From an uncultured Clostridia bacterium (GTDB lineage: Bacteria; Bacillota; Clostridia; Lachnospirales; CAMVHY01), in assembly GCA_946415665.1 (NCBI GenBank), contig CAMKTI010000002.1, forward strand, positions 1-42,125: DNA of 42,125 bases, read 5' to 3'. The position numbers and the translations under genes were made by a program. Below are positions 1,419 through 22,868 of this stretch, one piece after another. How positions within the stretch are numbered: the stretch's first letter is position 1; the number at the start of each line of letters is the position of its first letter. The notes under the pieces are model-generated. The model did not search any database, was not told the origin of the DNA, and saw only the letters and a list, made by a program, of their open reading frames with translations.

Positions 1419-1447
1419 ATTCTAAAACAAAAAATATTATCAGTCAA
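1419..1447 (-). promoter_or_regulatory. sigma-A-type promoter for the small-ORF operon
   Basis: Minus strand reads TTGACT, a 17-nt spacer, then TAGAAT. It lies about 105 nt upstream of the ATG at 1304. Confidence 0.55.
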
Positions 1448-1825
1448 GCGTTTTATTTGAAATTTAGATAAAAAAATAACATGGCGTGATTATTTTTAAA
1501 ACAAATTTATAATCTAGACAATTAAAAAATATTTTCTTAAAACAAAAGTAAAATTAGAGAGTGTCGATAAAGACGAGAAAAAATTAAAGAAAGTAACGAA
1601 GCAATAAATGATGAACAAGAAGTAAAGTATTTAACCCGATACTATTTAATCCATCTTCTGCTATGAGTAAGCACTAAATTATCGCTTGTCAAGCTAGAAA
1701 AAAATCTCATAAGCTTGATTGTATTACTAAAAATCAAAACTCATTGTCGATGTTAAACCAAAACTTTTTTAAAGAAAATAATTTTAGAAAAAAGAAAATG
1801 GTAACAAAAAAATTAAAGAAAAACA

Positions 1826-1875
1826 AAAGACAGGTCAAAAACTGTAATTTAATTCACAGTTTTAATCTGTCTTTT
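1826..1875 (-). terminator. long interrupted hairpin with U-run downstream of the 259-aa membrane protein gene
   Basis: Outer arms are aaaagacag and ctgtctttt, inner arms aaaactgt and acagtttt. T/A runs flank both sides, and it begins 10 nt past the stop at 1885. Confidence 0.6.
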
Positions 1876-1884
1876 TTGATTTTA

Positions 1885-2664: not shown

Positions 2665-2722
2665 AAAATCTACCTCCCATAAAATAATTACAATAAAAAA
2701 TAATAATTTTAAACAAAAAAAT

Positions 2723-2767
2723 GACGTCATCCAACGCGACGTCATCCAACGCGACGTCATCCAACCC
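2723..2767. repeat. 3 x 15-bp tandem repeat GACGTCATCCAACGC (third unit ends ...AACCC), GC-rich, each unit with a GACGTC palindrome
   Basis: Read directly from the sequence. It lies between the -10 box at 2777-2782 and the start codon at 2664 of the minus-strand gene. Confidence 0.95.
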
Positions 2768-2776
2768 TCCCCAACA

Positions 2777-2805
2777 ATTCTAAAGCAAAATTTTTTATTT
2801 GTCAA
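2777..2805 (-). promoter_or_regulatory. sigma-A-type promoter, copy P1 of a conserved promoter cassette
   Basis: Minus strand reads CTTGACAAATAAAAAATTTTGCTTTAGAAT, which is TTGACA, 17 nt, TAGAAT. Confidence 0.65.
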
Positions 2806-5559: not shown

Positions 5560-7326
5560 ATGACTTTAAGAAGCGAGATTGATAAAAAATTTAAATGGCA
5601 TTTGGAAGATTTATTTGAAAATGATGATTTGTGGCAAAAAGATTTTGATGAAGTTAAACAAAAAGTTGATGCGATAGAAAAAAATTTTAAAGGTAAATTA
5701 AATGATTTGGACGTTTTAAAAAAATGTTTAGACGAATCGCGTGGTATTGGAGAAAAATTAGGACGTTTGTATGTTTATGCTTTTATGAGATTACACGAAG
5801 ACATGAATAATAATTTTTACAATGGAATGTCTCAAAAAGTTACGGAGCTTGAATCACAAGTTTCAGCAAAAATGTCTTTTATTGAGCCGGAAATTTTAAA
5901 TATTTCGGAAGAAGAGCTTAATAAGTTCGTCGCAAAAAATAATTTATATGAGTTTTATATAAAAAATATATTGCGCATGAAAAAACATATTTTAAGTCCT
6001 GAAGAAGAAAAAATTTTAGCGGATGCAAAAAATATAGCTGTCGGTCCAGATAATATTTTTGGAATGTTAAATAATGCGGATATAAATTTTGGAAAAATAA
6101 AATTGCCAGATGAAAATAAAGCAGTTGAGTTAACACACGGAAATTTTATTTCGTTTATGGAATCTAATAATCGTGAATTTAGAAAAAATGTGTTTGAAAA
6201 ATATTATGCTGAGTATTTAAGACAGAAAAATACGATTCAGGCAATTTATGCAGCGAGTGTAAAAAAAGATATGTTTTTTGCTAAAACGAGAAGATTTAAA
6301 TCATGTTTGGAAAGTAAATTATATGGAAATAATATTCCTGAGAGCGTTTATTTTAATTTAATAGAGACGGTGCATAAATATTTGCCAGTATTGCATGATT
6401 ATATGGGATTACGAAAAAAAGTTCTTGGTGTTTCAGAATTGTATATGTATGATATTTACGTGCCTTTGGTTCATGAAATGGATAAAAAAATTGAATTTGA
6501 TGAAGCAAAAGAAATTGTAAAGAAAGCTTTATTGCCGTTGGGAAAAGATTATGTAGAAAAGCTGGACGAGGGATTAAATAGCGGATGGATTGATGTTTAT
6601 GAAAACAAAGGCAAAAGATGTGGAGCATACCAATGGGGTTCTTATGGTTGTCATCCGTTTGTTTTATTAAATTATGATAATAAACTCGATGATGTGTTTA
6701 CGTTGGCACATGAAATGGGACACGCAATGCATAGCTTTTATTCTTGGGGAAAACAAGAAAATTTGTATGCGGATTATACGATTTTTTTAGCTGAGATAGC
6801 TTCGACAGCAAATGAAACGCTTTTGATTAAATATTTATTAAAAAATAATAGTGATAGTAAATTTAGAGCTTATTTGTTAAACTATTTTATAGAGCAGTTT
6901 AGACGGACTTTATATAGACAAACGATGTTTGCCGAATTTGAATTAAAGGCACATGAATTTGTAGAAAATGGTCAGCCGTTGACGCTTGAATTATTAAATA
7001 AAACTTATCATGATTTGAATTTAATGTATCACGGGAAAGATATCGTTTTTGATGAAAATTCTGATATTGAATGGATGAGGATTCCGCATTTTTATAAGCC
7101 GTTTTATGTTTATCAGTATGCAACAGGACATTCGGCAGCAATTGCTTTAGCAGAAAAAATATTAGCTGGCAAAAATAATTATCGCGAATTTTTGGAAAGT
7201 GGATCGAGTAAATATTCGATTGAGATATTAAAAAATGCTGGAGTTGATATGACAACACCTGAACCAATTGAAAATGCTTTGAAATATTTTAAAGAGCTCG
7301 TTGATGAATTTAAAAATTTGGTTTAA
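5560..7326 (+). CDS. pepF: oligoendopeptidase F (M3B metallopeptidase)
   Basis: HEMGH zinc motif within TLAHEMGHAMH. The 588-aa length and sequence are PepF-like throughout. Confidence 0.92.
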   Translation: MTLRSEIDKKFKWHLEDLFENDDLWQKDFDEVKQKVDAIEKNFKGKLNDLDVLKKCLDESRGIGEKLGRLYVYAFMRLHEDMNNNFYNGMSQKVTELESQVSAKMSFIEPEILNISEEELNKFVAKNNLYEFYIKNILRMKKHILSPEEEKILADAKNIAVGPDNIFGMLNNADINFGKIKLPDENKAVELTHGNFISFMESNNREFRKNVFEKYYAEYLRQKNTIQAIYAASVKKDMFFAKTRRFKSCLESKLYGNNIPESVYFNLIETVHKYLPVLHDYMGLRKKVLGVSELYMYDIYVPLVHEMDKKIEFDEAKEIVKKALLPLGKDYVEKLDEGLNSGWIDVYENKGKRCGAYQWGSYGCHPFVLLNYDNKLDDVFTLAHEMGHAMHSFYSWGKQENLYADYTIFLAEIASTANETLLIKYLLKNNSDSKFRAYLLNYFIEQFRRTLYRQTMFAEFELKAHEFVENGQPLTLELLNKTYHDLNLMYHGKDIVFDENSDIEWMRIPHFYKPFYVYQYATGHSAAIALAEKILAGKNNYREFLESGSSKYSIEILKNAGVDMTTPEPIENALKYFKELVDEFKNLV

Positions 7327-7339
7327 AAAAATTTAAACG

Positions 7340-7762
7340 GTGATGTTTATGAGTGAAAATTGTATTTTTTGTAAGATAATAGATAATAAAGTTGATTGCT
7401 ATAAAATTTATGATGATGATGATTTAATTGTGATTTTGGATAAGTTTCCAAATAATATTGGGCATTCGTTGATTATTCCTAAAAAGCATATAGAAAATAT
7501 TTTTGAACTTGATGATGGTTTGTGTGAAAAGATTTTTAAGATGGTAAAAAAAGTGGCTTGTGAGTTAAAAAAAAATTTAAAGGCTGATGGAATAAATATT
7601 TTACAAAATAATAATGAGGCGGCAAGTCAAACTGTGAATCATTTTCATATGCATGTGATTCCAAGATTTTTTGGTGACACGGTAGAAATAAAATGGGTTA
7701 ATAATAAATTCAGCGATGATGATTTTAATTTGGTTTTAGAAAAAATTAAACGCGGTTTTTAG
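7340..7762 (+). CDS. HIT-family (histidine triad) hydrolase
   Basis: Contains the HFHMHVIPR histidine triad and CIFCKII near the N-terminus. The exact start is ambiguous (GTG 7340, ATG 7343 or ATG 7349). Confidence 0.88.
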   Translation: MMFMSENCIFCKIIDNKVDCYKIYDDDDLIVILDKFPNNIGHSLIIPKKHIENIFELDDGLCEKIFKMVKKVACELKKNLKADGINILQNNNEAASQTVNHFHMHVIPRFFGDTVEIKWVNNKFSDDDFNLVLEKIKRGF

Positions 7763-7782
7763 TTTTGTTTTGGAGGATAAAA

Positions 7783-8193
7783 ATGTCTGTTGTAAAAGAA
7801 ATTATTAAGATTGAAAACGATAGTTTGTGCTTTGGAAATTATTTGCTAGAAGAAAAAAATAAGGTGGATAATTTTATTTTTGAAAATGATAAATATAAAG
7901 TTAAGACTTATAATAAAATTACTCGGTTGGAAAAAAATGATAAGTTGATAATGGAAACGATTCCGGGAAGTACGATTAGGAATTTTAATATGAGCGAAAA
8001 AAAAATTTATTTTAGTGCCGAAGGATTAGATGACACGCAAATAACTTTTGATTTGCAGGTAAACAAAAATTATGAAATAGAAATAGATAATATTTTGATC
8101 GGCACAGAAAAATCAAGTGCGTTTGGTAAGCTTTGTTTTAGCGTAAATTTGTCAGATACACCGAAAGATATTAAAATAAGGCTAGTTGATTAA
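7783..8193 (+). CDS. hypothetical protein, 136 aa
   Basis: Start moved to the ATG at 7783, 7 nt after GGAGG. It is co-directional with pepF and the HIT gene. No family was recognised. Confidence 0.6.
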   Translation: MSVVKEIIKIENDSLCFGNYLLEEKNKVDNFIFENDKYKVKTYNKITRLEKNDKLIMETIPGSTIRNFNMSEKKIYFSAEGLDDTQITFDLQVNKNYEIEIDNILIGTEKSSAFGKLCFSVNLSDTPKDIKIRLVD

Positions 8194-8201
8194 ATAAAAA
8201 G

Positions 8202-8238
8202 CTCCTGATAAACAAAAATTTACCGGGAGTTTTTTTTA
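8202..8238 (+). terminator. terminator after the pepF-HIT-hypothetical string
   Basis: Stem ctcctg / cgggag (one G-U pair) followed by a T8 run. Confidence 0.55.
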
Positions 8239-8267
8239 AATAATTTTTCGCGTTGAATCTAAATCTA

Positions 8268-9119
8268 GGCAACGTTTGCATAAAAAGCAAATCACAAATA
8301 AAAGCAAAGGATATGGTAAAAATAAAAATAAAATCAAGCTTATCATAACGAGTAAAAACTTTTTTAAAATATTTCAATCTGAGAAAATATCGCTAGGTAT
8401 TGTTGCGCTGTTTATAAAGTTTTTTATTATGGAGCTAAGGGATTTTACAATTTTTCTTTAGGTGGACAACTGTGAAGAAACAGTGATCCTTAGCTAAAAC
8501 TAAAGTTTTATCATTTTCGTAATCTCGGTCCATCAAGAGATAATTATTATTTTTGGAATATATGGATTCAATCAACCTTCTTCTTTCAGGATCATTGTGA
8601 AGGTTGCCGTGAGACAAGCAAAAAACCACTGGATAAGGAAATGTGCAATGTGGGCGTCACTTTGTCGTTAATCCACATTTTGAACATCCGATTTTTTGTT
8701 TCTGATTACTTTTATTCTTGTTTGCATATGGATTTACCTTTATGTTTGCACTATCAATAAAGAGTATATAATCTCCTTCATTAAACGCTTTTTGCTTTTT
8801 CATGGCTTTCAAAACAAGGTTTTAAAAAAAAGCAATAGCTTTTGGCAATCGTAACGTTCTTCGACTATCTACTAAATTTCATATAAACTGCATGTCACTT
8901 CCCATATTTTTTTGATAGCGACATACATTTGCAACCGTTCTCTATTATGTAAAACATTGTACACATGAATTTGTAGTTTGATACCTTTGCTGTTTTTTTG
9001 CTATCGATATTAATCCCTCTAGTTTTTTTATTGCGTTTTTGCCAATTTCGTATCTCTAACCTATCACTTTTTTCTTTTTACTCAATCCATTTTTATTTTT
9101 ATTTTATGTGAATGATACC
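8268..9119 (-). mobile_element. IS5-family element type A, copy 1, with decayed transposase
   Basis: Fragments read ...LLMDRDYENDKTLVLAKD... and ...KKVFTRYDKLDFIF... in different frames. The ends, ggcaacgtttgcataaaa and ttttatgtgaatgatacc, are related to the copy-2 IRs. Confidence 0.8.
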
Positions 9120-9472
9120 TAATTACTTTTGAGGTAAAACAACTGAGAATCGATTTAAACGCTTCTGGTTTTATTTTGTAATGTTGCTAAACAAACACAG
9201 AGGCAGAGGATAAATTTGGCGCTGCAGCAAATGCATTAATGATTTCATTTGTTAAATTATTGCTTTCTATACCTATAATTGTTTTAACTATCATACGGAA
9301 TAGCAGCTTCAATTCCAGACAATAAAAGTTTCTTAAGATATTTTGGATTCATATATGACTTTCTTGCAAATGGAATTTCTCTAATTACAAGGCTTGCTTT
9401 TGTTTCATTATAAGATTTCAAGGTGAAAGCGGGCACACATATGAAAGGCTCTGTCAGTCACTTATATCAACA

Positions 9473-9534: not shown

Positions 9535-12500
9535 TTAAATATCACTTTTTTCATCTTCAACTTCAGTAATTCCAGGCATTTGATTTGATTGATTTAATTC
9601 AGTACCTTTATTTTTAGATAGACCAAGAGTTTTCTTTTGATGTTTTTCATATCCACTATTTATATTTTTATTTGTATTTTTTGGTTCTTTACAGATTGTT
9701 TTATATTTAATTTTATATGCAATGACAACAAAACAAAAAAAAAGAATACATGATAACATCGCCAAAAACCAAAACGCTTTTATTATGCTAAAAATCAAAA
9801 CGGAAAAAGCAATAACAGTTAACGCGTATAAAACAATTTTTGCTATTAATTTAAGATATGAAATTTTTGTGGTTGATGTAAAAGTAGTTTTAGAATCTTG
9901 ATCTTGTAAATTTTTTTGTGCTGAATCAATCGGGATGAATGTATTATTTATTTTTAGTACATTGTTGTTTCTGTTATCATTTAAGCCGATTTTTGTTGTT
10001 GAATTTGCGTTTAACTCGCCTTTATTATTTGTTGGTACATATTCGATGTTTATTTTATTTTTTTCTTTGTTTTTGATTTTTTCATCTTTGGTTCCTGTGT
10101 TTTTGCTCGATTTATTTTGTTGTAACTCGGGTATATTTATATTTTTCTCAGTTAATACTTTTTCCAGTTTGCCAAAGTTGCCACAGAACTCAAAATGTTC
10201 AGACCAAGAAAAATTTTTTTGTTTAAAATATAATTTTTTCGCATAAGCTAAAATCTTGTTTACAAACTTTTCATGAGTCATATCTATATCATCTTCATCA
10301 TCCGCCTCATTATCCGCCTCATTTGGATCATTTTCGTTTTTATTTTTAAGATCAGCATTACTTACAAAAATAATCAACAATCCCAAAAAACAACCCACAT
10401 CCTCCGAGATATCTTTCTTGTTTTTATTTGCAAAACCATATTTCAAAAATTCTTTTATTTGATCAAAATTCCATTTGGAACCATCTTTTATTTTTTGACA
10501 ACATTTTAAAAGAGTTGTTAGTTTCAATTTATCTTTTGTACCTTTTTTTTGCCCAGATTTTTCATCTTTTTTCGCTAGAAAGCGTGTTAAAACTTTGAGC
10601 ATATCACTTATATCAACAGCGCCATCAACAATTAGATTTATGACAGAGTTCATAAAAGAGTCACAATTTGAAATATCAATGGGATTATCTACAACTTTAT
10701 TAATATTTTCCAAAAAAATCTTTATATCATCTGATGATTTAATTATACCAGGCGCAATATTTTTGATAAAAAGCTCTATAGATTTTGACTCGCGTACTCT
10801 CAACGCCTGTTTTAAATCTTTTTCATAACCGGCTTTGATCACTTTCTGTATACGTGTCGGATCAACTTGTTTACTTTTCAAAAATTCATCTATAAGAGTG
10901 TCACATGCTTTTGAAAGCTCATTTAAATCTTGATATTTTGTTGCTTTTTGCTGAACAAAAGATTCAAACTTTTCCTGAAGAGCAGAAAAATCAGCCTCAA
11001 GCTTATTGTTACCGGAATCGTTAAATCTTACCCATCTATGTTTGAGCGCATTCTTTAAGTCAGAGCTTTTAATTGTTCCTTTTAAAAATTCAACCTCAGG
11101 TATATTTTCAGCGACCCAATCAAAAACATTCTGTTCAAATTTTATATACTCAGTTTCGTTTTCATCGACACGGCTCAAAAAATACACCAACAAATCGCAA
11201 AATGCCTCAACATCATCTTTCTTATATTTTTTTTCTTTTTTACCATCTTTAGATTTTTTTGATTTAGTAAAACGATTTTTAGCAACCAATAAAAATTTAG
11301 TTATGTCGTCAAATCTATATTTTTGTCCAGTACCAATTTTATACCTTAGAAAACAACTAATATCACTGATAGATAAACTGTTATTTTTATCTAACTTCAA
11401 AAATTTATTCATATCACTCATATTCAACCTATAATCGATAATCAATAGACGAAATTTATTAGAAGTAATATCGATATCCTTGGTTTTTGACTTTATGAAT
11501 TCAATAAGTCCATTAAAATCATCAGATGACTTAATTATATTATTATTTATTTTTTCTAAAATTTTATCAAACGAATCCCGATTAAGTACCAGTTCTTTTT
11601 TTATATCTTCTGTAATATCTATACCATATTTTTTTATTTCATTACTAAAATTTAAAACAAATGTATCATATAGTTTATTCAATTCATGAATGCCAGCACA
11701 ACTATAACTATTTACGAGAGCCAGATCATTATATAACTTGTTTAAAATAATTTTATTAAACCACACAAAATAGTCAATTGCAACTTTGATATCGCTATCA
11801 TCAGAGTTTTTCTGGAAAACAAATTTTATACAATGTTCATTAAGATACTTTGAGAGTTTAACTCCGCTTTTGTGTTTATCGATTTCGCTTAATAAATGTT
11901 TGAATTTTGGCGTACTTTTGTTTATAGAAGCAAAAATTTTTTGAGCTATGCTAAATTCTTTAGCTATATCATCTGATGCGATATTATAATAGGAATGAAA
12001 AAGCACCCACCACATTAAATTAAACAAAGCCTCTACTTGTTTATTGTGATCTTTTTTTTTACTTTTTGCATCGGGTAATATAAAATTTTCCGCGCAAGAT
12101 AATAATTTTTCAAAACAACTATAATCTAATTCAAATTTGTGTGCACAATTTGAAAGCGTGGATAGAGATAATTTTTTTCCTTTGTTCAAATCAAGGACCC
12201 AAAATAAATTATCTTTTGTTAACGTTGATTTCTCACCAACTTTAAGCAAATCAATAATATAAGACATAAAATAGTCATCATAAAAATCATCTTTAAACTT
12301 TAGATCGTTTTTTGTGAAATTAATTAGCTTTTCTAATTTTTCTGATGAATCGATTGTTTCCTCTTCAAAAGCCTCTAAAAAATACAACGGGAAGTTATCA
12401 TCCGTTAATTCCCAACTATCTTCATATTTCTTAAACTGATCATCATAAAATTTTTTAACTTCATTTTCGTCCACCTTTTTGTCGCTTGTCTTGGATTGGA

Positions 12501-12687
12501 TAACTTTTTCACATTTTTTATTCAACATCTTTTTCCAAATTTTTTTTACCTTAGCCAATTCATTTTTAATATTGTATTCATCATCCCAAGTTATTTGGCC
12601 TTCTTTTGATTGGTAGTAATCACATACTTTATTATTAAATTCATTATTTAATTCATTTATATCAAGCTGGATTTTTTCATTTTCCAT
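9535..12687 (-). CDS. orphan 1050-aa helical-repeat protein with C-terminal TM hairpin anchor
   Basis: Start moved to the ATG at 12687 (MENEKIQ...), 9 nt after AGGGGTG. The N-terminus is hydrophilic with no signal peptide. There are three internal repeats, and two TM helices at track aa 948-997 (nt 9709-9858). Confidence 0.85.
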   Translation of the reverse strand: MENEKIQLDINELNNEFNNKVCDYYQSKEGQITWDDEYNIKNELAKVKKIWKKMLNKKCEKVIQSKTSDKKVDENEVKKFYDDQFKKYEDSWELTDDNFPLYFLEAFEEETIDSSEKLEKLINFTKNDLKFKDDFYDDYFMSYIIDLLKVGEKSTLTKDNLFWVLDLNKGKKLSLSTLSNCAHKFELDYSCFEKLLSCAENFILPDAKSKKKDHNKQVEALFNLMWWVLFHSYYNIASDDIAKEFSIAQKIFASINKSTPKFKHLLSEIDKHKSGVKLSKYLNEHCIKFVFQKNSDDSDIKVAIDYFVWFNKIILNKLYNDLALVNSYSCAGIHELNKLYDTFVLNFSNEIKKYGIDITEDIKKELVLNRDSFDKILEKINNNIIKSSDDFNGLIEFIKSKTKDIDITSNKFRLLIIDYRLNMSDMNKFLKLDKNNSLSISDISCFLRYKIGTGQKYRFDDITKFLLVAKNRFTKSKKSKDGKKEKKYKKDDVEAFCDLLVYFLSRVDENETEYIKFEQNVFDWVAENIPEVEFLKGTIKSSDLKNALKHRWVRFNDSGNNKLEADFSALQEKFESFVQQKATKYQDLNELSKACDTLIDEFLKSKQVDPTRIQKVIKAGYEKDLKQALRVRESKSIELFIKNIAPGIIKSSDDIKIFLENINKVVDNPIDISNCDSFMNSVINLIVDGAVDISDMLKVLTRFLAKKDEKSGQKKGTKDKLKLTTLLKCCQKIKDGSKWNFDQIKEFLKYGFANKNKKDISEDVGCFLGLLIIFVSNADLKNKNENDPNEADNEADDEDDIDMTHEKFVNKILAYAKKLYFKQKNFSWSEHFEFCGNFGKLEKVLTEKNINIPELQQNKSSKNTGTKDEKIKNKEKNKINIEYVPTNNKGELNANSTTKIGLNDNRNNNVLKINNTFIPIDSAQKNLQDQDSKTTFTSTTKISYLKLIAKIVLYALTVIAFSVLIFSIIKAFWFLAMLSCILFFCFVVIAYKIKYKTICKEPKNTNKNINSGYEKHQKKTLGLSKNKGTELNQSNQMPGITEVEDEKSDI

Positions 12688-12772
12688 AAGCAAATACACC
12701 CCTAATCAAAATTTTTTCATGGCATCAAATAAAAACTAAAAATCGATTTTACATAACAAACAGTCGTTATTT

Positions 12773-13832: not shown

Positions 13833-13861
13833 TTGATAAATAAAAAATTTTGTTTTAAAAT
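13833..13861 (+). promoter_or_regulatory. sigma-A-type promoter, copy P3 of the conserved cassette
   Basis: Plus strand reads CTTGATAAATAAAAAATTTTGTTTTAAAAT, which is TTGATA, 17 nt, TAAAAT. It lies about 80 nt upstream of the ATG at 13941. Confidence 0.6.
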
Positions 13862-13940
13862 TACCACTGGATAATGATGATTGCTTTTGGCAAATAATAA
13901 ATTTACTTTTAAAATAAACAAGGAGTATGTGAAATAAAAC

Positions 13941-15803
13941 ATGAACGAGAATAATTTAGAGTGTAATTTGGATTCTTTGAAGGATATTATTTTAGATGTG
14001 CTGCTTGCAATAATGATTGGAGATTGGACTGGATCCAATATAGAAAATTTTACGGATGGAAATGAACATTTATTAAAATGGGATTTGTACCATGTACAAA
14101 TGTTACCGCCGGCCGGAATAAAAAAACAACAAGACTATAATTTAAACTTAGCTCAAAATTGTATAGAAGATGATGGAGCAAGAGCGGCAAAAAATTATAT
14201 ATTGAAGGCACCAAATCGATTGACTGACGATACAATGTTTTCAATGGCACTTGCGCTTACATTAATTTTAAATAGAGAAAAATATAAGTTAGATCAGGAA
14301 TTTGACGAAAGGACTTATAAAAAAAATTTAGAAGAACTTATGGCTGATTATACTGAAATGCTAATGAAGTTTTATCGTTATTATAATTCAATAAGTGTTT
14401 GTGGACCAATGATGCATAAATTACTTAGTACAAAATTAGCTAACGTTCCGAAAAATAAATTAATAGAAACTATAAAAAAAATCAAACAACAAAACAAATT
14501 AAGCGGCGAACATTTTTGTGAGAGTTATGCAAACGGTTCGGCAATGCATAGTGCTCCCGGTGCATACGTTGCGCGAACTATGGAAGAATTAGATTTTATA
14601 ATTGAACAGACGGTTAAAAATACACATGATAATCCTGATGCGATAAAAGGCGCAAAAGTTGTTGCACAGTTTATTTTTTTGGCAAGGCTCGGATGGGACA
14701 AAGAAACGATAGCCAAATGGATAAGTTATAAATTTAAAGTTAAAGGCGAACACCCTTGCGCAAGTTATGATACAAGTTTAACACTTGAAGATATTAAAAA
14801 ATCATATTTTAGGACATTAGAATGCAAATACACAGTTCATCCGGCATTGATTGCCGTGCTTAAGGCAAATAGTTTTGAAGAAGCGGTAAATAATGCGAGA
14901 TCGATTGGAGGAGATTCTGATACTATTTGTGCAATTGCAGCACAAATGGCTGTGGCTCTTTGGCCAATTCCTAATAAATATAAAGATACGATAAAAAAAT
15001 ATTCGCTTGATGTCAAAACAGAGGGTACTCTCAAATTAGATCTTAAAAACCCAACAGCGCAAGAATTTTTATCTTGTAATCGCAATGGGAAAAATAATTT
15101 ATTTATAAAAATTAATGATGAATTTAATAAGAAATTTGTTGCACGTTATAAAAATAATGATTTGATAATTTGGCAGTTAAAAAATACGTTGTCGATTGTT
15201 AAAAATTTAGAAACCGATTTACAAAATATTGTGATTGAAGAAAAAAAGAATGATTTAATTGCTTTGCTTGATGGAATAGAAAAAGATTTGCAAAATAAGT
15301 TTGCTAAAGTAGGAAACAATATTTCAAAAGAAATAGCTGAGTTTGTGGAAAAAATAAAATCGAAAACAACAGAAATAAAAAATAAAGCAAAAACATTAAA
15401 TATCCAAGTAAACAATGATAATTGTATGGCAGATAATTATGTAACACCAGAAGGTTTTATCGAGGAAAAACCAAAAGTTATTTTTGTGCCGTATATTACA
15501 ATCCTAAAAAATGTTTTTGTACACGAACTCAACTTAGTAGTTATTTTTATTTGTGTGCTCGCGGTAATTATATGCGCAATAAAGGCATTATGGCTATTTT
15601 CCGGAATTTCAGCTGGTATATTTTTATTAATCATCATGATTGATTTTGTGGCAAGCATAATCAAATTTAAGTGTGTTAATAAAGAATATTATTTATCGCA
15701 AAATAACACTGATCAGAACTCTAAAACTTTAGAATTACCACCAAAAAATACAGTCGGAGAACAACATTTAAAAATAGATTTAGATTATAAAGAAAAAGAT
15801 TAA
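13941..15803 (+). CDS. ADP-ribosylglycohydrolase (ARH/DraG family) domain fused to a coiled-coil spacer and C-terminal TM hairpin, 620 aa
   Basis: ARH signature motifs are AIMIGDWTG (aa 23-31), LTDDTMF (aa 94-100), GSAMHSAPG, THDNPDAIKGA and GGDSDTICAIAAQMA (aa 323-337). TM helices fall at aa 528-575 (nt 15522-15665). Confidence 0.85.
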   Translation: MNENNLECNLDSLKDIILDVLLAIMIGDWTGSNIENFTDGNEHLLKWDLYHVQMLPPAGIKKQQDYNLNLAQNCIEDDGARAAKNYILKAPNRLTDDTMFSMALALTLILNREKYKLDQEFDERTYKKNLEELMADYTEMLMKFYRYYNSISVCGPMMHKLLSTKLANVPKNKLIETIKKIKQQNKLSGEHFCESYANGSAMHSAPGAYVARTMEELDFIIEQTVKNTHDNPDAIKGAKVVAQFIFLARLGWDKETIAKWISYKFKVKGEHPCASYDTSLTLEDIKKSYFRTLECKYTVHPALIAVLKANSFEEAVNNARSIGGDSDTICAIAAQMAVALWPIPNKYKDTIKKYSLDVKTEGTLKLDLKNPTAQEFLSCNRNGKNNLFIKINDEFNKKFVARYKNNDLIIWQLKNTLSIVKNLETDLQNIVIEEKKNDLIALLDGIEKDLQNKFAKVGNNISKEIAEFVEKIKSKTTEIKNKAKTLNIQVNNDNCMADNYVTPEGFIEEKPKVIFVPYITILKNVFVHELNLVVIFICVLAVIICAIKALWLFSGISAGIFLLIIMIDFVASIIKFKCVNKEYYLSQNNTDQNSKTLELPPKNTVGEQHLKIDLDYKEKD

Positions 15804-15849: not shown

Positions 15850-15875
15850 GCAAAACTATTAAAAACAAGATAAAA

Positions 15876-16403
15876 TTATACCAACTCAATTATTGCCATT
15901 TCAGCTCCATCGCCATTTCTTTTTCCAATCTTAATTATTCGTGTATATCCGCCGTTTCTCTGTGTATATCTTGGAGCAATCTCATCAAACATTTTTTTTG
16001 GCAAATCAACAAATTTTCGAGATCTCTTTTTTTTGTTTCCCTTGGGAAATTCTGATATACGACAAGTATTCGCTAGTATTTTTCTACGTGCATTCAATCT
16101 TCCCGGATTATCCTTTTTTATACTTTTATCAACAACATCAAAAACATTAACTGTTTTTCCATTTTCATCTTTTTCTTTAACGCGATTTCCATTTTCGTCT
16201 TTTCGCGCTTTTTTAGTCTGTATATTAACCTCTTTGTAATCATCAGAATTTTTCTTTGCGACAGTAATTAATTTTTCAGCTTTTCTTCTTATTTCTTTTG
16301 CTCGATGCAACGTCGTTTTTATCTTGCCATAATAAATCAAACACGTAACACCCGATTTTAAAAAAGCTTTTCTCGTATCAGACTTAAAACCTATTTTTTT
16401 CAA
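15876..16403 (-). CDS. rplQ: 50S ribosomal protein L17 (long form with Lys-rich insertion)
   Basis: Contains ...[21 protein letters not shown]... and ...[35 protein letters not shown]. It is the last gene of the alpha operon. Confidence 0.93.
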
Positions 16404-16409
16404 TTAAAC

Positions 16410-17453
16410 TCACTCTCCCACATATTCATTATTTTCACCATTATCATTATTGCCATTATCTTCATCATCTTCATTTTTCAATTTCAAGCCAAGCGAATCC
16501 AACTTACACATAATTTCATCATATGATTTTTTACCCAAATTTCGCATCTTAAGCATTTCGTCATTTGTTTTAGCTAATAAATCACCAACCGAACCTATAC
16601 CAGAACGTCTTAAACAGTTATAAGCTCTTACGGACAAATCTAAATCTTCTATCGACATTTCAGAAAAATTCTCATCACTTGAATATACGACATCTTCGAA
16701 TATATTGCTTGTATTTTCTTCGATGCTTTTAAATTCAGAAATATCAATAAAACTTTCTAATTGCGTTCTAATTATTTTGGCAGCATAAGCAAGTGCCTCC
16801 GTTGCTTTCATTGCCCCATTCGTCCAAATTTGAAAAACCAACTTATCATAATCCGTAACATTCCCAACACGCACATCTTCAATATAAAAATTCACGCGTT
16901 CTACCGGCGTATAAATGGAATCAATCGCAATCACGCCAATTTCATTATTTATTTTTTTATTCTCTTCCGCTGAAACATATCCTTGCCCTCTTGTCAAAGT
17001 CATTTCCATTCGCAAACTACTATCATTCGAACTCAACGTTGCTATATGCAAATCTTTATTAACTATTTCAAACTCCGAACTTAATTTAATATCACCGCCG
17101 GTAACTTCTGTTTGTCCAGAAATTTCTATAAATGCCTTGTTACTTTCAAAACCATCCAGATAATTATTATCTAGATTACCCATGTTATCTTTTATAGCCA
17201 ATTTCTTTAAATTTAAAATAATATACATAGTGTCTTCTTTTACATCTGGTAAATTACTAAACTCATGTAAAACACCATCAATTTTAACATTACTTACTGC
17301 TATTCCAGGTATCGACGACAACATAACTCTTCGTAAAGTATTCCCTAAAGTCGCTCCGTAACCACGTTCCAACGGTTTGACACTGCATGAAGCATATTTC
17401 CCGTCATCACTCATCTCAATAATTTCTATGTGAGGTTTATTAATTGCTAGCAC
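16410..17453 (-). CDS. rpoA: DNA-directed RNA polymerase subunit alpha
   Basis: PLERGYGATLGNTLRRVMLSSIPG motif. Start set to the GTG at 17453, 8 nt after AAGGAGG. The C-terminal tail is acidic and Asn-rich. Confidence 0.95.
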   Translation of the reverse strand: MLAINKPHIEIIEMSDDGKYASCSVKPLERGYGATLGNTLRRVMLSSIPGIAVSNVKIDGVLHEFSNLPDVKEDTMYIILNLKKLAIKDNMGNLDNNYLDGFESNKAFIEISGQTEVTGGDIKLSSEFEIVNKDLHIATLSSNDSSLRMEMTLTRGQGYVSAEENKKINNEIGVIAIDSIYTPVERVNFYIEDVRVGNVTDYDKLVFQIWTNGAMKATEALAYAAKIIRTQLESFIDISEFKSIEENTSNIFEDVVYSSDENFSEMSIEDLDLSVRAYNCLRRSGIGSVGDLLAKTNDEMLKMRNLGKKSYDEIMCKLDSLGLKLKNEDDEDNGNNDNGENNEYVGE

Positions 17454-17503
17454 AAACAAAACCTCCTTATACTTTTTAATATCTTCACCAGAAATTATCT
17501 AAA

Positions 17504-18130
17504 TTACTTGGAATACAACTCAACTATAAGTGTCATGTTAACATCAGAATCTATCTGCTCACGCTTTGGCTCGCTAACAATACTACCCTTATAATTATCC
17601 TTATTGCAATTTAACCATTCCGGAACGATTCGATCGCCCGTTTCTTCTAAAATCATTTTAAATAATTCTAACGGCTCACCATCGTGCTTAATTTCTATTA
17701 TATCCCCAACTTTAACCAAATAAGACGGAATATTAACTTTACGACCATTAACCAAAATATGATTATGTCTCACTAACTGTCTTGCCTCCGAACGCGACCT
17801 AGCAAATCCCAATCTATAAACAACATTATCCAAGCGTTTTTCCAACAAAATTAATAGATTATCACCAGTTATGCCCTCCATTCCGTCAGCTTCGCGATAA
17901 TAAATTCTAAATTGCCTTTCCAAAACTCCATATACTCTTTTTGCTATTTGCTTTTCTTTTTGTTGAAGTCCATATTCAGACAATTTTACTTTATTTTTAC
18001 CATGTTGTCCCGGCGGATAATTTCTTCTATCAATTGCACACGCCGCACATGAACAGCGTGAGCCTTTTAAAAATAATTTTTTACCTGCTCTTCTGCAAAA
18101 TCTACACTTTGCTCCTATATATTTTGCCAC
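17504..18130 (-). CDS. rpsD: 30S ribosomal protein S4
   Basis: N-terminus is AKYIGAKCRFCRRAGKKLFLKG. Start set to the GTG at 18130, 6 nt after GGAGGG. Confidence 0.95.
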   Translation of the reverse strand: MAKYIGAKCRFCRRAGKKLFLKGSRCSCAACAIDRRNYPPGQHGKNKVKLSEYGLQQKEKQIAKRVYGVLERQFRIYYREADGMEGITGDNLLILLEKRLDNVVYRLGFARSRSEARQLVRHNHILVNGRKVNIPSYLVKVGDIIEIKHDGEPLELFKMILEETGDRIVPEWLNCNKDNYKGSIVSEPKREQIDSDVNMTLIVELYSK

Positions 18131-18158
18131 AATCAACCCTCCATTTATTTATAAATTA

Positions 18159-18560
18159 CTAAACTCTTCTGCGTTTCGGTGGCCTACAACCATTATGTGG
18201 CATAGGTGTCACATCTTTTATAACAGTAACTTCTAATCCACTCACTTGCAATGCTCTAATTGCCGACTCACGTCCACTTCCCGGACCTTTTACAAATACG
18301 ACAATATATTTTACTCCATAATCCGAAACTTTTTTTGCTGCTGCTTCTGCTGCCATTTGTGCGGCATACGGTGTTGATTTTTTCGATCCCTTAAAACCTA
18401 ATTCGCCTGCACTCGCTTGCGCCAAAACATTTCCATGCTCATCCGTAATTGCCACAATCGTATTATTAAAACTGGACTGAATATGCGCCTGTCCATTAAT
18501 AACGGATCTTATTTTACGACGTTTTTTTTTCGTTTGCGCCAATGTCTTTGCTTTTGGCAT
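18159..18560 (-). CDS. rpsK: 30S ribosomal protein S11
   Basis: Contains ...[22 protein letters not shown]...[14 protein letters not shown]...CRPPKRRRV. Confidence 0.96.
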
Positions 18561-18584
18561 TAATCAATTACACCTCCATTAAAT

Positions 18585-18968
18585 TTATTTTTTCTTATTC
18601 GCTATAGTTCGTCTTGGTCCTTTACGTGTTCTAGCATTAGTCTTTGTTTTTTGACCACGAACTGGAAGCCCTTTTCTGTGGCGAATTCCGCGATAACAAC
18701 CAATTTCGATTAAGCGCTTTATATTAAAAGCAACCTCTGCTCTTAATTCACCTTCAAATTTTTCGCCATGTTCACCAAGCTTATTTATTACATTTCTAAT
18801 TTTTGCAACATCTGCATCGGCTAAATTTTTTACTCTTATATCAGGATCAACATCTGCTTTTTTTAATATCATTTGTGATTTTTTTAGTCCAATTCCATAT
18901 ATATAAGTCAATGCAATTTCAATTCTTTTTTCTTTCGGCAAATCAATATTCAAAATACGCGTTGTCAT
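18585..18968 (-). CDS. rpsM: 30S ribosomal protein S13
   Basis: Contains [10 protein letters not shown]...[29 protein letters not shown]. Confidence 0.96.
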
Positions 18969-19010
18969 TTAATTTAATTTCTCCCTCCCTAAATTAATAA
19001 ATAAAAATCA

Positions 19011-19124
19011 TCAACCTTGTGCTTGTTTATGCTTAGGATTTTCACAAATTACCCTTACCCTTCCTTTGCGTCTTATAATTTTACATTTATCACATATTTT
19101 TTTTACTGAAGGGCGTACTTTCAT
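19011..19124 (-). CDS. rpmJ: 50S ribosomal protein L36 (not in the ORF track)
   Basis: Hand translation gives [48 protein letters not shown] is present. Confidence 0.93.
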
Positions 19125-19145
19125 AGCAAATCACCCCCAAAAAAA

Positions 19146-19364
19146 TTATTTCTCTCGCCATACAATTCGCCCTTTTGTCAAATCATACGGAGACATTTCA
19201 ACCCGAACTTTATCTCCGGGAAGTATCCTTATAAAATTCATTCTCAAACGACCTGAAATATGTGCAACAATTTTATGGCCATTAGACAATTCTACTATAA
19301 ATTCAGCATTCGGTAATTTTTCCACAACTGTCCCTTCCATTTCTATAACATCACTCTTGGACAA
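19146..19364 (-). CDS. infA: translation initiation factor IF-1
   Basis: Contains [21 protein letters not shown]...[18 protein letters not shown]. Start set to the TTG at 19364, giving the canonical 72 aa. Confidence 0.93.
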
Positions 19365-19365
19365 A

Positions 19366-19635
19366 TTACCCACTCTCCCTGCTTTTTATATTTACATAAT
19401 TTTTTATCGCCATTTTTATATCTAAGTCCAAACAGTTTCCTTTCGATATTTTTTTTATAATCTCATCACAAATATAATTCGTAACTTGCACATGCTTTAT
19501 TTTTTTTCTCTTTGGATTTTTAAATAATCTTTTACTGCCGTCGACCAAATATAAATATAAATCATTTTCAGCTATAACAACAAATATTTTTCCTTTGTCA
19601 TGTCCACATTTAGAATAAACTATATGCCCAATCAA
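19366..19635 (-). CDS. KOW-domain RNA-binding protein (conserved map-infA spacer gene of Clostridia)
   Basis: Contains [19 protein letters not shown], which is KOW-like. Sits in the conserved position between map and infA. Confidence 0.7.
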
Positions 19636-19651
19636 AAAATCACCTTTTTTC

Positions 19652-20401
19652 TCAAACCATCGTCAAAATTTCAGGCTCGCCATCACAAATCAAAATAGTA
19701 TTTTCATAATGTGCCGAACATTTTTTATCAGCTGTTATAACTGTCCAACCGTCATCCAAAGAAATAACACGATCAGTTCCAATATTAACCATAGGCTCTA
19801 TCGCTAAAGTCATGCCGGCACTTAATTTTGGCCCGCGTCTATTTTGCTTATAATTCGGAATCTCAGGTGCTTCGTGCATATTAGTTCCTATGCCATGACC
19901 AACATAATCCTTAACCACAGAAAAACCATTTTTTTCAACATAATCCTGAACTGCTTCAGAAATTTCAAACAAGTGACATCCAGATTTAGCAAATTTAATT
20001 CCCTCAAAAAAACTCTGTCTAGTAACTTCTACTAACTTTTTATTTTCATCACTAGTTTCGCCCAAAATAAATGTCCTTGCAGCATCTCCGTAATAACCGT
20101 CAAAAATCGCCCCAACATCAATACTTACAACATCGCCAGCTTTTAATTTCCTTTCTCCAGGAATTCCGTGTATAACTTCTTCATTTATAGAAATACAAGA
20201 CGATGCAGGATATCCTCTGTAATTTAAAAAACCCGGCACAGCGTTACGAGACCTAATATAATTCTCGATAATTTTATCTAGTTCGCGCGTTGTTATGCCT
20301 ACACAAATATTTTTTTCTGCAACTTCTAAGGCTTTTCCAGTAATTTCTCCGGCCACACGCATTTTTTTAATTTCACTTTCGCTTTTTATTGTTATTGGCA
20401 T
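19652..20401 (-). CDS. map: type I methionine aminopeptidase
   Basis: Contains ...VIHGIPG...GDVVSIDVGA..DGYYGDAARTF...GHGIG..MHE...LAIEPM.... Confidence 0.95.
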   Translation of the reverse strand: MPITIKSESEIKKMRVAGEITGKALEVAEKNICVGITTRELDKIIENYIRSRNAVPGFLNYRGYPASSCISINEEVIHGIPGERKLKAGDVVSIDVGAIFDGYYGDAARTFILGETSDENKKLVEVTRQSFFEGIKFAKSGCHLFEISEAVQDYVEKNGFSVVKDYVGHGIGTNMHEAPEIPNYKQNRRGPKLSAGMTLAIEPMVNIGTDRVISLDDGWTVITADKKCSAHYENTILICDGEPEILTMV

Positions 20402-20424
20402 ACAAAAATCCCTCCAGACTAATT

Positions 20425-21666
20425 TTAACTTAAAAAACCTTTATAATTGCGTACTAATAACTGCGAATCTAATTGCTTTATGATTTCAAGAGCAACGCCT
20501 GTCACGATCAATAAAGTCGTTCCACCAAATCCAACTTTAATTTTAAATACCCATTCAAGAATTACTGGCATAATCGCAACGATTGCGTAAAAAAGTGCTC
20601 CGATCCAAGATAATTTATTAATCGAATTTTGAATATAATCTGAAGTTGGTTTTCCTGGACGAATCCCTGGAATAAAACCGCCGCTCTTTTTTATATTTTC
20701 AGCAATCTCAACCGAATTAACCGTAAACGACGTATAAAAAAACGTAAAGCAAAATATTAAAAATACATAAATAAGCGTTCCCCACGGATTAGTAATATCT
20801 AAAAACTCAACAATTTTTTTTAACTTATCCGAATGCCATATCTGATAAACAGTCGCAGGAAATTGCATCAATGAAATCGCAAAAATTATCGACATTACTC
20901 CAGCAATATTTATCTTAATCGGAATATAAGAATCTTTGGCGCTAAACACCCCTACCGTTTTTTTTGAATACTGAACCAAAATTCTTCTTTCTCCATCTTG
21001 CACCCAAATAACAAACGCCATAACAATTATAAATAACAGTATCAGTGATCCAATTTTAATCCAAGAATAAATATCACTATCATTTTGGGGATATAAATTC
21101 ATAATTCCATTTGGCAATCCAGATAAAATATTTGCAAAAATAATAAACGAAGATCCGTTTCCCATTCCATATTCATTCAACATTTCGCCAAGCCACATAA
21201 CAAATATCGAACCTGTTACTAAAGCAATTAAAGCAACGGCATAAACAAAAAAGTTTTGGTAAATAAACAAGCCTTTTAACATATAAATATATCCAGCGCC
21301 CTGCATCAACGACAATAAAATTGCCATTAACCTTGTATACTGATCAATTTTTTTTCTGCCTTCTTTACCATCTTTTTTTAATTGCTCCAAACTTGGAATC
21401 GCAACTGTTAATAATTGCAAAATTATCGACGCGGTTATATACGGACCAATTCCTAAAGCAAAAATTGACGCATAACCTCCACCGGATATAATCGCAAACA
21501 ACGACTGTTTCGAAGCTGCCTTAAACAAACTTATTAACTTTAAATTTAAAGCCGGCAAATAAATATGTGCCCCAAGCCTGTAAACTAAAAGCGCAATAAA
21601 AATATTAAATAATTTCCTGCGTACATCTTTTAATTTTAAAGCTTTGGCAAAAGTTTTAAAAAACAT
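20425..21666 (-). CDS. secY: preprotein translocase subunit SecY
   Basis: Multi-TM protein with SIFALGIGPYITASIILQLL and other SecY signatures. Its start overlaps the rplO stop (TAATG). Confidence 0.95.
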   Translation of the reverse strand: MFFKTFAKALKLKDVRRKLFNIFIALLVYRLGAHIYLPALNLKLISLFKAASKQSLFAIISGGGYASIFALGIGPYITASIILQLLTVAIPSLEQLKKDGKEGRKKIDQYTRLMAILLSLMQGAGYIYMLKGLFIYQNFFVYAVALIALVTGSIFVMWLGEMLNEYGMGNGSSFIIFANILSGLPNGIMNLYPQNDSDIYSWIKIGSLILLFIIVMAFVIWVQDGERRILVQYSKKTVGVFSAKDSYIPIKINIAGVMSIIFAISLMQFPATVYQIWHSDKLKKIVEFLDITNPWGTLIYVFLIFCFTFFYTSFTVNSVEIAENIKKSGGFIPGIRPGKPTSDYIQNSINKLSWIGALFYAIVAIMPVILEWVFKIKVGFGGTTLLIVTGVALEIIKQLDSQLLVRNYKGFLS

Positions 21667-22121
21667 TAAACCACCTCTGCTTTTCCACCCGAAGCTTCAA
21701 TTTTTTCTTTGGCCGACTTACTAAAAGCATTTGCCTTAATAAAAATTTTTTTATTAAAATCGCCGTTAGCCAAAACTTTAAAACCATCATATTTTTTACT
21801 AAAAATACCTTTTGATTTTAATACCTCAAAATCAACATTTGCTCCATCATCAAATAATTTATTTACTAAGCCTAAATTTATAATCAAAATTATTTTCTTA
21901 TTTCTATTTTTAAAACCCCGTTTAGGAACTCTTCTAAACTGTGGCATCTGTCCACCTTCAAAACCTAATCTTACACCGCCACCGCTTCTTGCATTTTGAC
22001 CTTTATGTCCGCGTCCTGCAGTTTTTCCATTTCCTGATCCGTGTCCACGTCCTTTACGAAAAGATTTCCGTTTACTCTTGGGATTTACAACCAAATTACC
22101 AATCCTAATTATACTTTTCAT
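21666..22121 (-). CDS. rplO: 50S ribosomal protein L15
   Basis: Contains [25 protein letters not shown]. Confidence 0.95.
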
Positions 22122-22235
22122 CTAATCTCACCTCTCAATATTTATTTTTAGCTTTTCAAATTTTTTTCAACACATTAGCTATCGATTTATTATTCTTTTC
22201 CACTTGCTACTCTTCACAATCAACCAAAACTATTC
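22122..22235 (-). pseudogene. rpmD: possible decayed remnant of rpmD (L30) in the rpsE-rplO spacer
   Basis: The spacer is only 114 bp. Hand translation gives LIVKSSKWKRIINR* in one frame and QVEKNNKSIANVLKKI* in another. These weakly resemble the L30 segments I.LVKS.IG and ....T...LGLKKI. Confidence 0.3.
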
Positions 22236-22868
22236 TTAATCTTCATTTTTTTTCGTGTGTAATTTTAATATATCTTCTGGTGATTTCAAATTCTTAAACG
22301 CTTCGATTACAGCTTTCGTAATATTATGCTTATTTCTCGAACCAATCGATTTGCTTCTAACATTTTTTATTCCAGCAAGTTCCATAATAATTCTCACAGG
22401 ACCACCAGCAATAATACCAGTACCTTCTTTCGCTGGCTTTATTAATACACGTGAAGCACCAAATTTTCCAATAATCTCATGATAAATACTTTCGTTATCA
22501 TTCATTTTCACAAAAACCAAATTTTTTTTAGCATTACCCGTTGCTTTACGAACCGCTTCACTTACTTCAGAAGCTTTTCCTGAACCTAATCCAATATAAC
22601 CTTTTCCATCTCCGACAGCAACAAGCGCAGCAAATCTAAAGATTCGTCCACCTTTTACAACTTTCGTAACGCGATTAACAAAAATTACTTTATCTTTAAG
22701 TTCAAGCTCATTTATAAATGCAAATTTTTTTCCCAAGAACTCAATTTTTTTCTTTTCATTTCTGCGTTCTCGTTCTCTATCTCGTTCTCTCTTTTGTCTG
22801 TTATTTCCAAATCTTGACCTTTTATCATTTCTATTTTTTTGCATCGCATTCATATTTTCTTTTCCCAA
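22236..22868 (-). CDS. rpsE: 30S ribosomal protein S5 (with Arg/Glu/Lys-rich N-terminal extension)
   Basis: Contains VNRVTKVVKGGRIFRFAALVAVGDGKGYIGLGSGKA. Confidence 0.95.
   Translation of the reverse strand: MGKENMNAMQKNRNDKRSRFGNNRQKRERDRERERRNEKKKIEFLGKKFAFINELELKDKVIFVNRVTKVVKGGRIFRFAALVAVGDGKGYIGLGSGKASEVSEAVRKATGNAKKNLVFVKMNDNESIYHEIIGKFGASRVLIKPAKEGTGIIAGGPVRIIMELAGIKNVRSKSIGSRNKHNITKAVIEAFKNLKSPEDILKLHTKKNED

Follow-up and report, generated by a model that had tools for sequence, protein, structure and literature searches.

Introduction

All characterised ADP-ribosylglycohydrolase (ARH) erasers, namely ARH1, ARH3, DraG, Tri1 and Lmo0067, are to our knowledge soluble proteins. Here we describe a bacterial gene that joins an ARH head to a C-terminal membrane block. 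It is a complete open reading frame (ORF) of 620 codons plus stop at positions 13941–15803 (plus strand) of contig CAMKTI010000002.1 from an uncultured Clostridia bacterium; the whole stretch that was analysed (a complete contig of 42,125 bp, GC content about 30%) is referred to as the window. The enzyme family as such is ordinary; what is rare and unannotated is the domain arrangement, in which an apparently competent hydrolase would be held at the membrane by a C-terminal hairpin.

ARH3 (ADPRHL2/ADPRS) is a eukaryotic hydrolase of Ser-ADP-ribose, poly(ADP-ribose) and O-acetyl-ADP-ribose. The window protein agrees with it in the catalytic Glu and at each of the six metal-ligand positions. It differs in being soluble and in having neither stalk nor anchor. 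Identity in a structural alignment is about 13–15%, a distance at which, by sequence comparison, substrate specificity cannot be transferred from ARH3.

Two accessory, conflict-associated proteins that confer immunity to ADP-ribosylating interbacterial toxins, Tri1 of Serratia proteamaculans (6dre) and Lmo0067 of Listeria (8za7), share their fold and active-site motifs with the window protein. Lmo0067 is the best match in a single-sequence search of the PDB (E = 6e-4). The 8za7 deposition carries the title ‘ART-ARH type toxin effector-immunity protein pair’ (ART, ADP-ribosyltransferase); a literature search on Lmo0067 gave nothing relevant. Both proteins are soluble and encoded beside their toxin, whereas the window gene has no adjacent toxin. 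Tri1 in addition bears an N-terminal extension which occludes the toxin (PMC8120803).

DraG, an Arg-ADP-ribose hydrolase with the ARH fold that is shared by the window head, is the only ARH with a known relevant membrane localisation. It is sequestered at the plasma membrane, and the membrane-bound form is the off-state, kept from its substrate (PMC8120803). In contrast to what we propose for the window protein, DraG has no transmembrane segment of its own and reaches the membrane reversibly via partner proteins. In nitrogen fixers its gene accompanies draT; neither draT nor nif genes were found in the window.

Beyond the immediate family, sequence similarity is highest to short ARHs of bacteria, phages and plasmids (about 260–290 aa; annotated as ‘ADP-ribosylglycohydrolase family protein’; 33–46% identity over aa 194–349), which have the motifs GDxxGSxxE, TDDT, THxHP and GGDxDT in common with the window protein. 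These short ARHs, themselves biochemically uncharacterised, lack the insertions at aa 36–93 and 110–190, the stalk and the membrane block, and the modules fused to them are soluble (SseB, Macro, HD, kinase, NADAR). Among the matches listed, the nearest soluble relative is the metagenomic protein P0014 (663 aa; 38% identity over aa 93–345, E = 3e-27). It shares the insertions, the intact catalytic residues and a stalk motif (...NDEF..F....W.L...), but has no hydrophobic block and ends in 250 aa of unrelated sequence. The anchor thus seems to have been acquired in the low-GC lineage of Clostridia.

The catalytic head

The protein can be divided into the following parts, all encoded on the plus strand.

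13983–14990, plus strand: ARH catalytic domain, about aa 15–350, supported by PF03747, Foldseek and substitution rates
14019–14045, plus strand: motif 1, GDWTGSNIE, aa 27–35, with D28 and the predicted catalytic Glu E35
14223–14234, plus strand: motif 2, TDDT, aa 95–98, predicted metal ligands
14907–14924, plus strand: motif 3, GGDSDT, aa 323–328, predicted metal ligands
15108–15395, plus strand: helical stalk, aa 390–485, conserved and helical in AlphaFold2
15396–15527, plus strand: linker, aa 486–529, of low model confidence (below 50), fast-evolving and poorly conserved
15528–15671, plus strand: hydrophobic block of 48 residues, aa 530–577, read as a two-helix membrane hairpin
15672–15800, plus strand: polar C-terminal tail, aa 578–620, opening with CVNKE

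The PF03747 profile matches aa 59–339 with 70.3 bits (E = 2.9e-19; Pfam cut-off 26.2). The motifs start at aa 27 (GDWTG), aa 94 (LTDDT), aa 228 (THDNPDA) and aa 323 (GGDSDT), and the head has lineage-specific insertions at about aa 36–93 and about aa 110–190. We aligned 20 sequences, family members together with 15 canonical short ARHs. The invariant positions are G27, D28, G31, E35, D96, D97, S195, N198 and G199 in the N-terminal part (aa 27–199) and H229, G237, A238, D325, D327, T328 and A337 in the C-terminal part (aa 229–337); T95 is nearly invariant. Twelve invariant ARH columns are all intact in the window protein as well as in the related proteins P0001, P0003, P0004 and P0011.

When the profile of this alignment was compared with solved structures, the best match was ARH3 (E = 7e-32). 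GDxxGSxxE, TDDT and GGDxDT are paired with GDCVGSFYE, YTDDT and GGDTDT of the human protein, so that we take E35 to be the equivalent of E41, T95-D96-D97 that of T76-D77-D78, and D325-D327-T328 that of D314-D316-T317. An equivalent E-D-D set is given for DraG and Tri1 in a review (PMC8120803). A preliminary description of this DNA had taken the metal-binding and catalytic motifs to be intact. The Pfam match, the invariant columns and the ARH3 alignment agree with this, and none of the metal-ligand Asp or Thr residues was found to be substituted when the profile alignment was inspected for such changes.

A full-length AlphaFold2 model computed from nine sequences has a mean predicted local distance difference test score (pLDDT) of 60, with values of 70–94 in the C-terminal half of the head. 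Searched against the PDB with Foldseek, this moderately confident model returned only ARH folds at the top (ARH3, MJ1187, 2cwc, DraG and Lmo0067, probability 1.00), with target-normalised TM-scores of 0.55–0.63. On profile and model evidence, we thus assign the protein to the ADP-ribosylglycohydrolase superfamily with its all-alpha ARH fold. The head looks catalytically competent and is predicted to be a metal-dependent ADP-ribosyl hydrolase.

In three pairwise comparisons, the ratio of nonsynonymous to synonymous substitution rates (dN/dS) in the head is 0.22–0.35. The value of 0.22 in the head, as opposed to about 0.85–0.93 in linker and tail, indicates that selection acts on the enzyme. With 620 codons at 30% GC and a head under purifying selection, the ORF is well past chance. 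The N-terminus is kept among the homologues, which supports the start codon at 13941.

Membrane block and topology

The block at aa 530–577 is the sole strongly hydrophobic region of the protein (Kyte–Doolittle maximum of 3.16 for a 19-mer). K548 and D568 are its only charged residues apart from the KFK at aa 575–577, which forms its end. Two non-overlapping 19-mers within the block have negative summed insertion energies, –3.43 and –0.22 on a position-independent scale with values after the published table; 19-mers of this kind are found in no other part of the protein. P0001, P0003, P0004 and P0011 likewise have two of them. For the block dN is 0.36, with dS saturated.

A hydrophobic helix of 48 residues is much too long for a single span, and a tight hairpin with both ends inside is therefore the simplest arrangement. 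We consider this C-terminal two-helix, N-in/C-in hairpin the best reading of the sequence. Helix 1 would extend over about aa 530–547 and helix 2 over about aa 551–575, the latter with G555xxxG559, and the central turn would be formed by K548-A-L-W551. The turn motif, IFAI(K/N)xxWL, includes the invariant W551; no other part of the tail is as well conserved between subfamilies at 35% identity. Down to this level, the mid-block turn pairs the invariant Trp with Lys, Asn or Gln.

Two points speak against the hairpin. AlphaFold2 draws one continuous helix, at aa 533–587 in the full-length run and at aa 519–590 when only the tail is modelled; in both runs pLDDT in the block is 53–77 and the alignments are shallow (7–9 sequences). 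Furthermore, a hairpin loop of one to three residues would be unusually tight. The tail-only run had been made as a hairpin search and, with its one long helix, was uninformative. Thus, of the two transmembrane helices proposed in the preliminary description, a block with two 19-mers of negative insertion energy stands, while their hairpin arrangement was not reproduced by AlphaFold2.

No signal peptide was detected by hydropathy of the first 60 windows (Kyte–Doolittle maximum 1.51) or in the n-region, which is acidic. Since a 528-aa N-terminal part precedes the block and a K-rich flank comes after it, the head should be on the cytoplasmic side, as had been proposed. The basic cluster KFKCVNKE consists of the terminal KFK of the block and the first residues of the tail; three K/R face one D/E in aa 575–590, a charge bias that fits a cytoplasmic C-terminal flank. 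The additional step from membrane tethering to a membrane-proximal substrate, also taken in the preliminary description, is pure inference.

Stalk, linker and tail

In the full-length model, the stalk is folded into helices at aa 387–403, 407–427, 433–455 and 463–485, with pLDDT mostly at 85–94 and down to 70 at aa 451–460. The first stalk helix contains the motif INDEFNKKF...W411QLKNT, in which the family alignment shows no variation at W411, N415 and T416; the motif of this helix is also found in the soluble relative P0014. The region aa 400–490 had been described as a coiled coil, which we cannot uphold. It is helical, but there is no continuous heptad register across aa 400–490 (the best register scores 0.18, shuffled sequences average 0.16, and 43% of the shuffles do as well), and AlphaFold2 divides the region into three helices of 21–23 residues with breaks. 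‘Helical stalk’ is therefore the better term. Linker and tail evolve at a nearly neutral rate, with a dN/dS of 0.85 across aa 426–528 and of 0.93 in the polar C-terminal tail.

Relatives and distribution

When 1.84 billion representative proteins were scanned in full with HMMER, the head gave 2,369 ARH relatives at E < 1e-3, only four of them at E < 1e-30. The close homologues P0001–P0007 are 72–91% identical to the window protein, and P0012 is a fragment of the family. Two more distant proteins, the paralogues or orthologues P0008 (2428–4269 of locus L012) and P0013, are 35–42% identical and have the complete layout of ARH head, stalk and hairpin. Both have lost E35, D97, D327 and T328, and their motifs are degenerate (e.g. 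ALSEIT for LTDDT, and GGDRHV or GGDQHV for GGDSDT), so that they are likely pseudo-enzymes. In P0011 (868 aa, 23% identity) the motifs are intact, the helical region is longer and the C-terminal block is similar.

To look for other membrane-anchored ARHs, 150 listed proteins of the 2,369 were inspected for hydrophobic segments. Five of the 146 that are outside the immediate family (about 3%) have a strongly hydrophobic 19-mer. P0020 has the layout kinase–ARH–single transmembrane segment–dockerin and P0089 has a Gly/Ala-rich C-terminal block; the others are P0050, P0117 and P0125. These segments indicate that membrane tethering of ARH domains arose more than once. C-terminal membrane anchors are nevertheless rare among the listed relatives, where the five represent all cases with any hydrophobic segment. 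No source searched names anchored-ARH proteins, and no description of a transmembrane-anchored ARH was found in the literature searched, partly by a poorly targeted query. Taken together with the four matches below 1e-30, this bears out the assumption of the preliminary description that the fusion is not a common annotated architecture.

The distribution of the gene is equally narrow. Of 185,579 GTDB species-representative genomes, a single one has a copy; it is the metagenome-assembled genome of an ‘uncultured Clostridia bacterium’, and the copy is a pseudogene. A profile search with stalk and tail for other heads yielded only the family fragments P0007, P0160, P0161 and P0005, and was weak as low-complexity words saturated the pre-filter. 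An origin from phages or plasmids was considered and dropped: among 50,697 phage and 72,556 plasmid records, matches are confined to the generic ARH half, and none extends over 80% or more of the protein.

Fusion partners of the long relatives are SseB (8), Macro (4), HD (3), kinase (2), NADAR, patatin and others. In two further metagenomic proteins, P0009 (800 aa) and P0010 (806 aa), a short ARH is located at the N-terminus of a type I HsdM methylase (PF02384, PF12161). The ARH–HsdM fusion hints at a removal of ADP-ribose from DNA.

Genomic context and expression signals

The window contains the ribosomal-protein/secY/rpoA/rplQ operon (minus strand, 15.9–31 kb), spoIIAA-spoIIAB-sigF (38257–39791) as well as murG, pepF and a HIT-family gene. 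On its gene content the host is a spore-forming Firmicute. The ARH gene is monocistronic here and at every related locus. Upstream it is flanked by a 1.2-kb spacer and a divergent orphan gene, downstream by the convergent rplQ. The features around it are as follows.

8261–8909 and 35148–35784: at least two copies or remnants of the insertion sequence (IS) that cuts the ARH gene in L001 and L002, 76–90% nucleotide identity
12990–13460, minus strand: degraded remnant of an IS5-like transposase, occupying part of the upstream spacer, read from the sequence
13833–13861, plus strand: sigma-70-like promoter match 1, TTGATA-17-TAAAAT
13887–13915, plus strand: sigma-70-like promoter match 2, TTGGCA-17-TAAAAT
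13921–13925, plus strand: putative ribosome-binding site AGGAG, read from the sequence, 15 nt 5' of the ATG
13927–13932, plus strand: two-codon start-stop ATG-TGA between AGGAG and the ARH start codon
15828–15849, no strand assigned: GC-rich hairpin in the gap where the ARH gene and rplQ converge

The two promoters are consensus matches only, and the number of such matches in the region is not above that in shuffled sequence. Because of the intervening ATG-TGA, the spacing of 15 nt between ribosome-binding site and start codon is unusually long. The GC-rich hairpin was rated as the terminator of a minus-strand gene by a terminator scan.

The gene occurs in at least four distinct genomic contexts. 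It adjoins PPDK in L001, L002, L009 and L011 and rplQ in the window, and comes after cysS in L005 and after a two-component system in L010. At four of about nine loci it is disrupted. One allele, present on four contigs (L001–L004), is cut at aa 425 by an IS element; the L005 copy is without its first 180 codons and is interrupted by an internal stop; the GGDSDT segment is gone from L010; and L011 is frameshifted. We are thus dealing with a narrowly distributed, often-lost accessory gene in uncultured gut Clostridia. In the window, IS copies bracket the block formed by the orphan and the ARH gene, which suggests an IS-mediated rearrangement beside the ribosomal operon. The IS5-like remnant has no second copy, either in the window or in the related loci that were retrieved.

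Some other features of the region may be mentioned. A DDE_Tnp_1 fragment is located at 34253–34594, and four tRNA genes (Lys-ttt, His-gtg, Arg-tct and Pro-tgg; 33838–34173, minus strand) abut the IS fragments at 34.2–35.8 kb. Within the ribosomal operon, secY is directly followed by map (19652–21666, minus strand), with a gap of 23 nt and no adenylate kinase gene between them; the usual order in Firmicutes is secY-adk-map.

Orphan proteins with similar C-terminal blocks

The gene divergent from the ARH gene (9535–12699, minus strand) encodes a 1054-aa orphan without a Pfam match. It has a large polar head and a C-terminal bilobed block of 54 aa (aa 948–1001), the turn of which, IIKAFWFL, resembles AIKALWLF of the ARH tail. 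Its family comprises six proteins, one named only ‘hypothetical protein, Firmicutes bacterium’. We rejected a tail module common to this orphan and the ARH protein: the orphan is the top non-family match of the tail hidden Markov model (HMM), but with E = 0.13 among 649 ORFs, and there is no match by BLASTP. A functional link was rejected as well, the homologues of the orphan being located in a conserved pgsA-X-pdp context without an ARH gene.

Further orphans without a Pfam match also end in a hydrophobic block. They are encoded at 40118–41542 (minus strand) in the window, at 1495–3111 in L001, at 6528–9161 (minus strand) and 15865–22607 (minus strand, at least 2811 aa) in L006, and at 161–1978 (minus strand) in L009. 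The block is 48–56 aa long in five of these large orphans, 9535–12699 included, and shorter in 40118–41542; a short polar tail comes after it. By BLASTP the heads are mutually unrelated, and no signal peptide is evident in these proteins.

A comparable layout is seen in the Inc proteins of chlamydiae and in other proteins with a bilobed hydrophobic hairpin as anchor: the large soluble domain is tethered by one hydrophobic block of about 40–60 aa, which a very short polar turn divides. Inc proteins are secreted through type III systems by Gram-negative pathogens with an intracellular life, mostly have the block close to the N-terminus, and are not known to be related in sequence to the window protein. 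The proteins described here look like a lineage-specific class of hairpin-anchored cytoplasmic proteins that is Inc-like in layout.

Two other unusual proteins are encoded in the window. The one at 31538–32794 (plus strand) has 418 aa, is rich in Lys, Glu and Asn and coiled-coil-like, and contains an internal duplication of AKSELEKTTKELNELKENHE; its only matches are weak ones to coiled-coil regions of SMC, Rad50 and JetC. At 1885–2805 (minus strand) there is a 306-aa orphan with several hydrophobic segments and an N-terminal tandem peptide, WMTSRWMTSRWMTS, for which no family match was found.

Possible functions

The structural side of our reading, a hydrolase of competent appearance that its own C-terminal anchor fastens to the inner face of the membrane, is well supported. 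For the biological role we tentatively favour, ahead of the alternatives discussed below, that of a protective, immunity-like eraser. The ARH head (aa 15–350) would supply a complete Glu/Thr-Asp-Asp/Asp-x-Asp-Thr site. The short helical stalk (aa 390–485), and then a flexible linker, would connect it to the membrane part, where two closely packed helices (aa 530–575) with a Lys-x-x-Trp turn at the outer interface would lead the short basic tail back to the cytoplasm. Anchored in this way, the enzyme would stay permanently at the cytoplasmic side of the cell membrane. After the attack of an ADP-ribosylating toxin, ADP-ribose could then be stripped from targets at or near the membrane, a protection analogous to that by Tri1 and Lmo0067 against their toxins.

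Three observations lead us to favour this role. The gene is mobile, patchy and often lost, has dead paralogues, and thus behaves like an accessory conflict gene. Its nearest relatives are found in phages, plasmids and multi-domain conflict architectures around NAD and ADP-ribose. Finally, ARH immunity proteins are an established class, as represented by Tri1 and Lmo0067.

Other findings weigh against a protective eraser, the main weakness being the absence of a linked toxin or writer gene. A search of the window and of about 100 kb from related loci, which very divergent ARTs could escape, recognised no ADP-ribosyltransferase; none is annotated in L001, L006, L009, L010 or L011, and nowhere is a toxin adjacent to the gene. 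For the host itself the search covered 42 kb of the genome, and a writer may be encoded elsewhere. The scores for the equivalog families of Tri1 (NF041672, 32.1 bits, cut-off 490) and DraG (TIGR02662, 29.5 bits, cut-off 337) are far too low, and membership in either was dropped. PADLOC gave no credible defence match (only LeoBC with E = 0.024 over the low-complexity tail), so that a defence-system assignment was dropped, too. In addition, the frequent pseudogenes and the dead paralogues could mean that the enzymatic role is dispensable.

Alternatively, the protein might serve as the eraser in a switch of the cell's own that works by reversible ADP-ribosylation, which we consider unlikely. The anchor would then target the enzyme to a membrane-associated partner, e.g. 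division, sporulation, transport or signalling machinery, or would sequester it, as with DraG, from a cytosolic target. The intact active site and the purifying selection on the head would suit such a switch, as would the conservation of stalk and anchor across divergent subfamilies and a sporulating host (spoIIAA/spoIIAB/sigF). A core enzyme, however, is not expected to be IS-truncated, frameshifted or deleted at about half of its loci, to change contexts or to occur in few metagenome bins, and there is no adjacent gene for a transferase partner. DraG is indeed controlled by sequestration at the plasma membrane (PMC8120803), but a permanent anchor cannot give the reversible sequestration of DraG.

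It is improbable that the head, instead of acting on modified macromolecules, clears small ADP-ribose derivatives (O-acetyl-ADP-ribose, alpha-NAD+ or ADP-ribose-based signals) at the membrane. The idea draws on ARH3, the best solved profile match, which hydrolyses O-acetyl-ADP-ribose too, and on the close relatives that are often fused to Macro, NADAR and HD domains, processors of ADP-ribose derivatives. Viral ARG, Macro and NADAR domains have been proposed to target soluble ADP-ribose signals (review PMC9503650). The sequence, however, does not discriminate between substrates, the window has no signal-producing neighbour (no TIR, SIR2 or cyclase), and a diffusible substrate offers little reason for a permanent anchor.

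We regard it as very doubtful that we are looking at a membrane scaffold, decaying or without enzymatic role, from a family about to turn into pseudo-enzymes, in which this copy has retained its catalytic residues by chance. In this case the purifying selection on the head (dN/dS 0.22–0.35), the intact invariant columns here and in the four related proteins listed above, and a full-length ORF with promoter-like and ribosome-binding signals would be hard to accommodate. Still, P0008 and P0013 keep the architecture without the four catalytic residues, linker, anchor and tail evolve nearly neutrally, and the disrupted loci and a genome rich in IS copies are in line with decay.

An Inc-like export, by which the block would insert into a foreign or specialised membrane, for instance that of the forespore, of a partner cell or of a host, and expose the head there, is highly improbable. 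The many large orphans without signal peptide but with a 48–56-aa bilobed terminal block in the window and related loci, and the low GC content, IS expansion and pseudogenes as signs of host restriction, point in this direction. Against it, the window shows neither a secretion system nor an evident secretion signal, the tails are not significantly united by the tail HMM (best non-family E = 0.13), which leaves a likeness in architecture only, and we know of no Gram-positive precedent.

Implications

In its widest and rather improbable form, our reading would make this protein the first integral-membrane ADP-ribosylation eraser, one of a repertoire of proteins pinned by bilobed hairpins in an IS-ridden lineage of ruminant-gut Clostridia. 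It would imply a membrane ADP-ribosylation cycle, either endogenous or at the membrane of a partner or host, with the dead paralogues as readers or decoys. The significance is limited by the occurrence in few uncultured gut bacteria, by the frequent pseudogenes and by the lack of a known partner gene. On the other hand, nature has provided a set of comparisons: intact alleles, IS-truncated alleles without anchor and dead paralogues of the same layout may allow enzymatic and scaffold roles to be separated. Should the protein of the window prove to be an active enzyme and a true membrane protein, the surface of a bacterial membrane would be a site where ADP-ribosylation is both written and erased, and a membrane-proximal target or toxin would exist.

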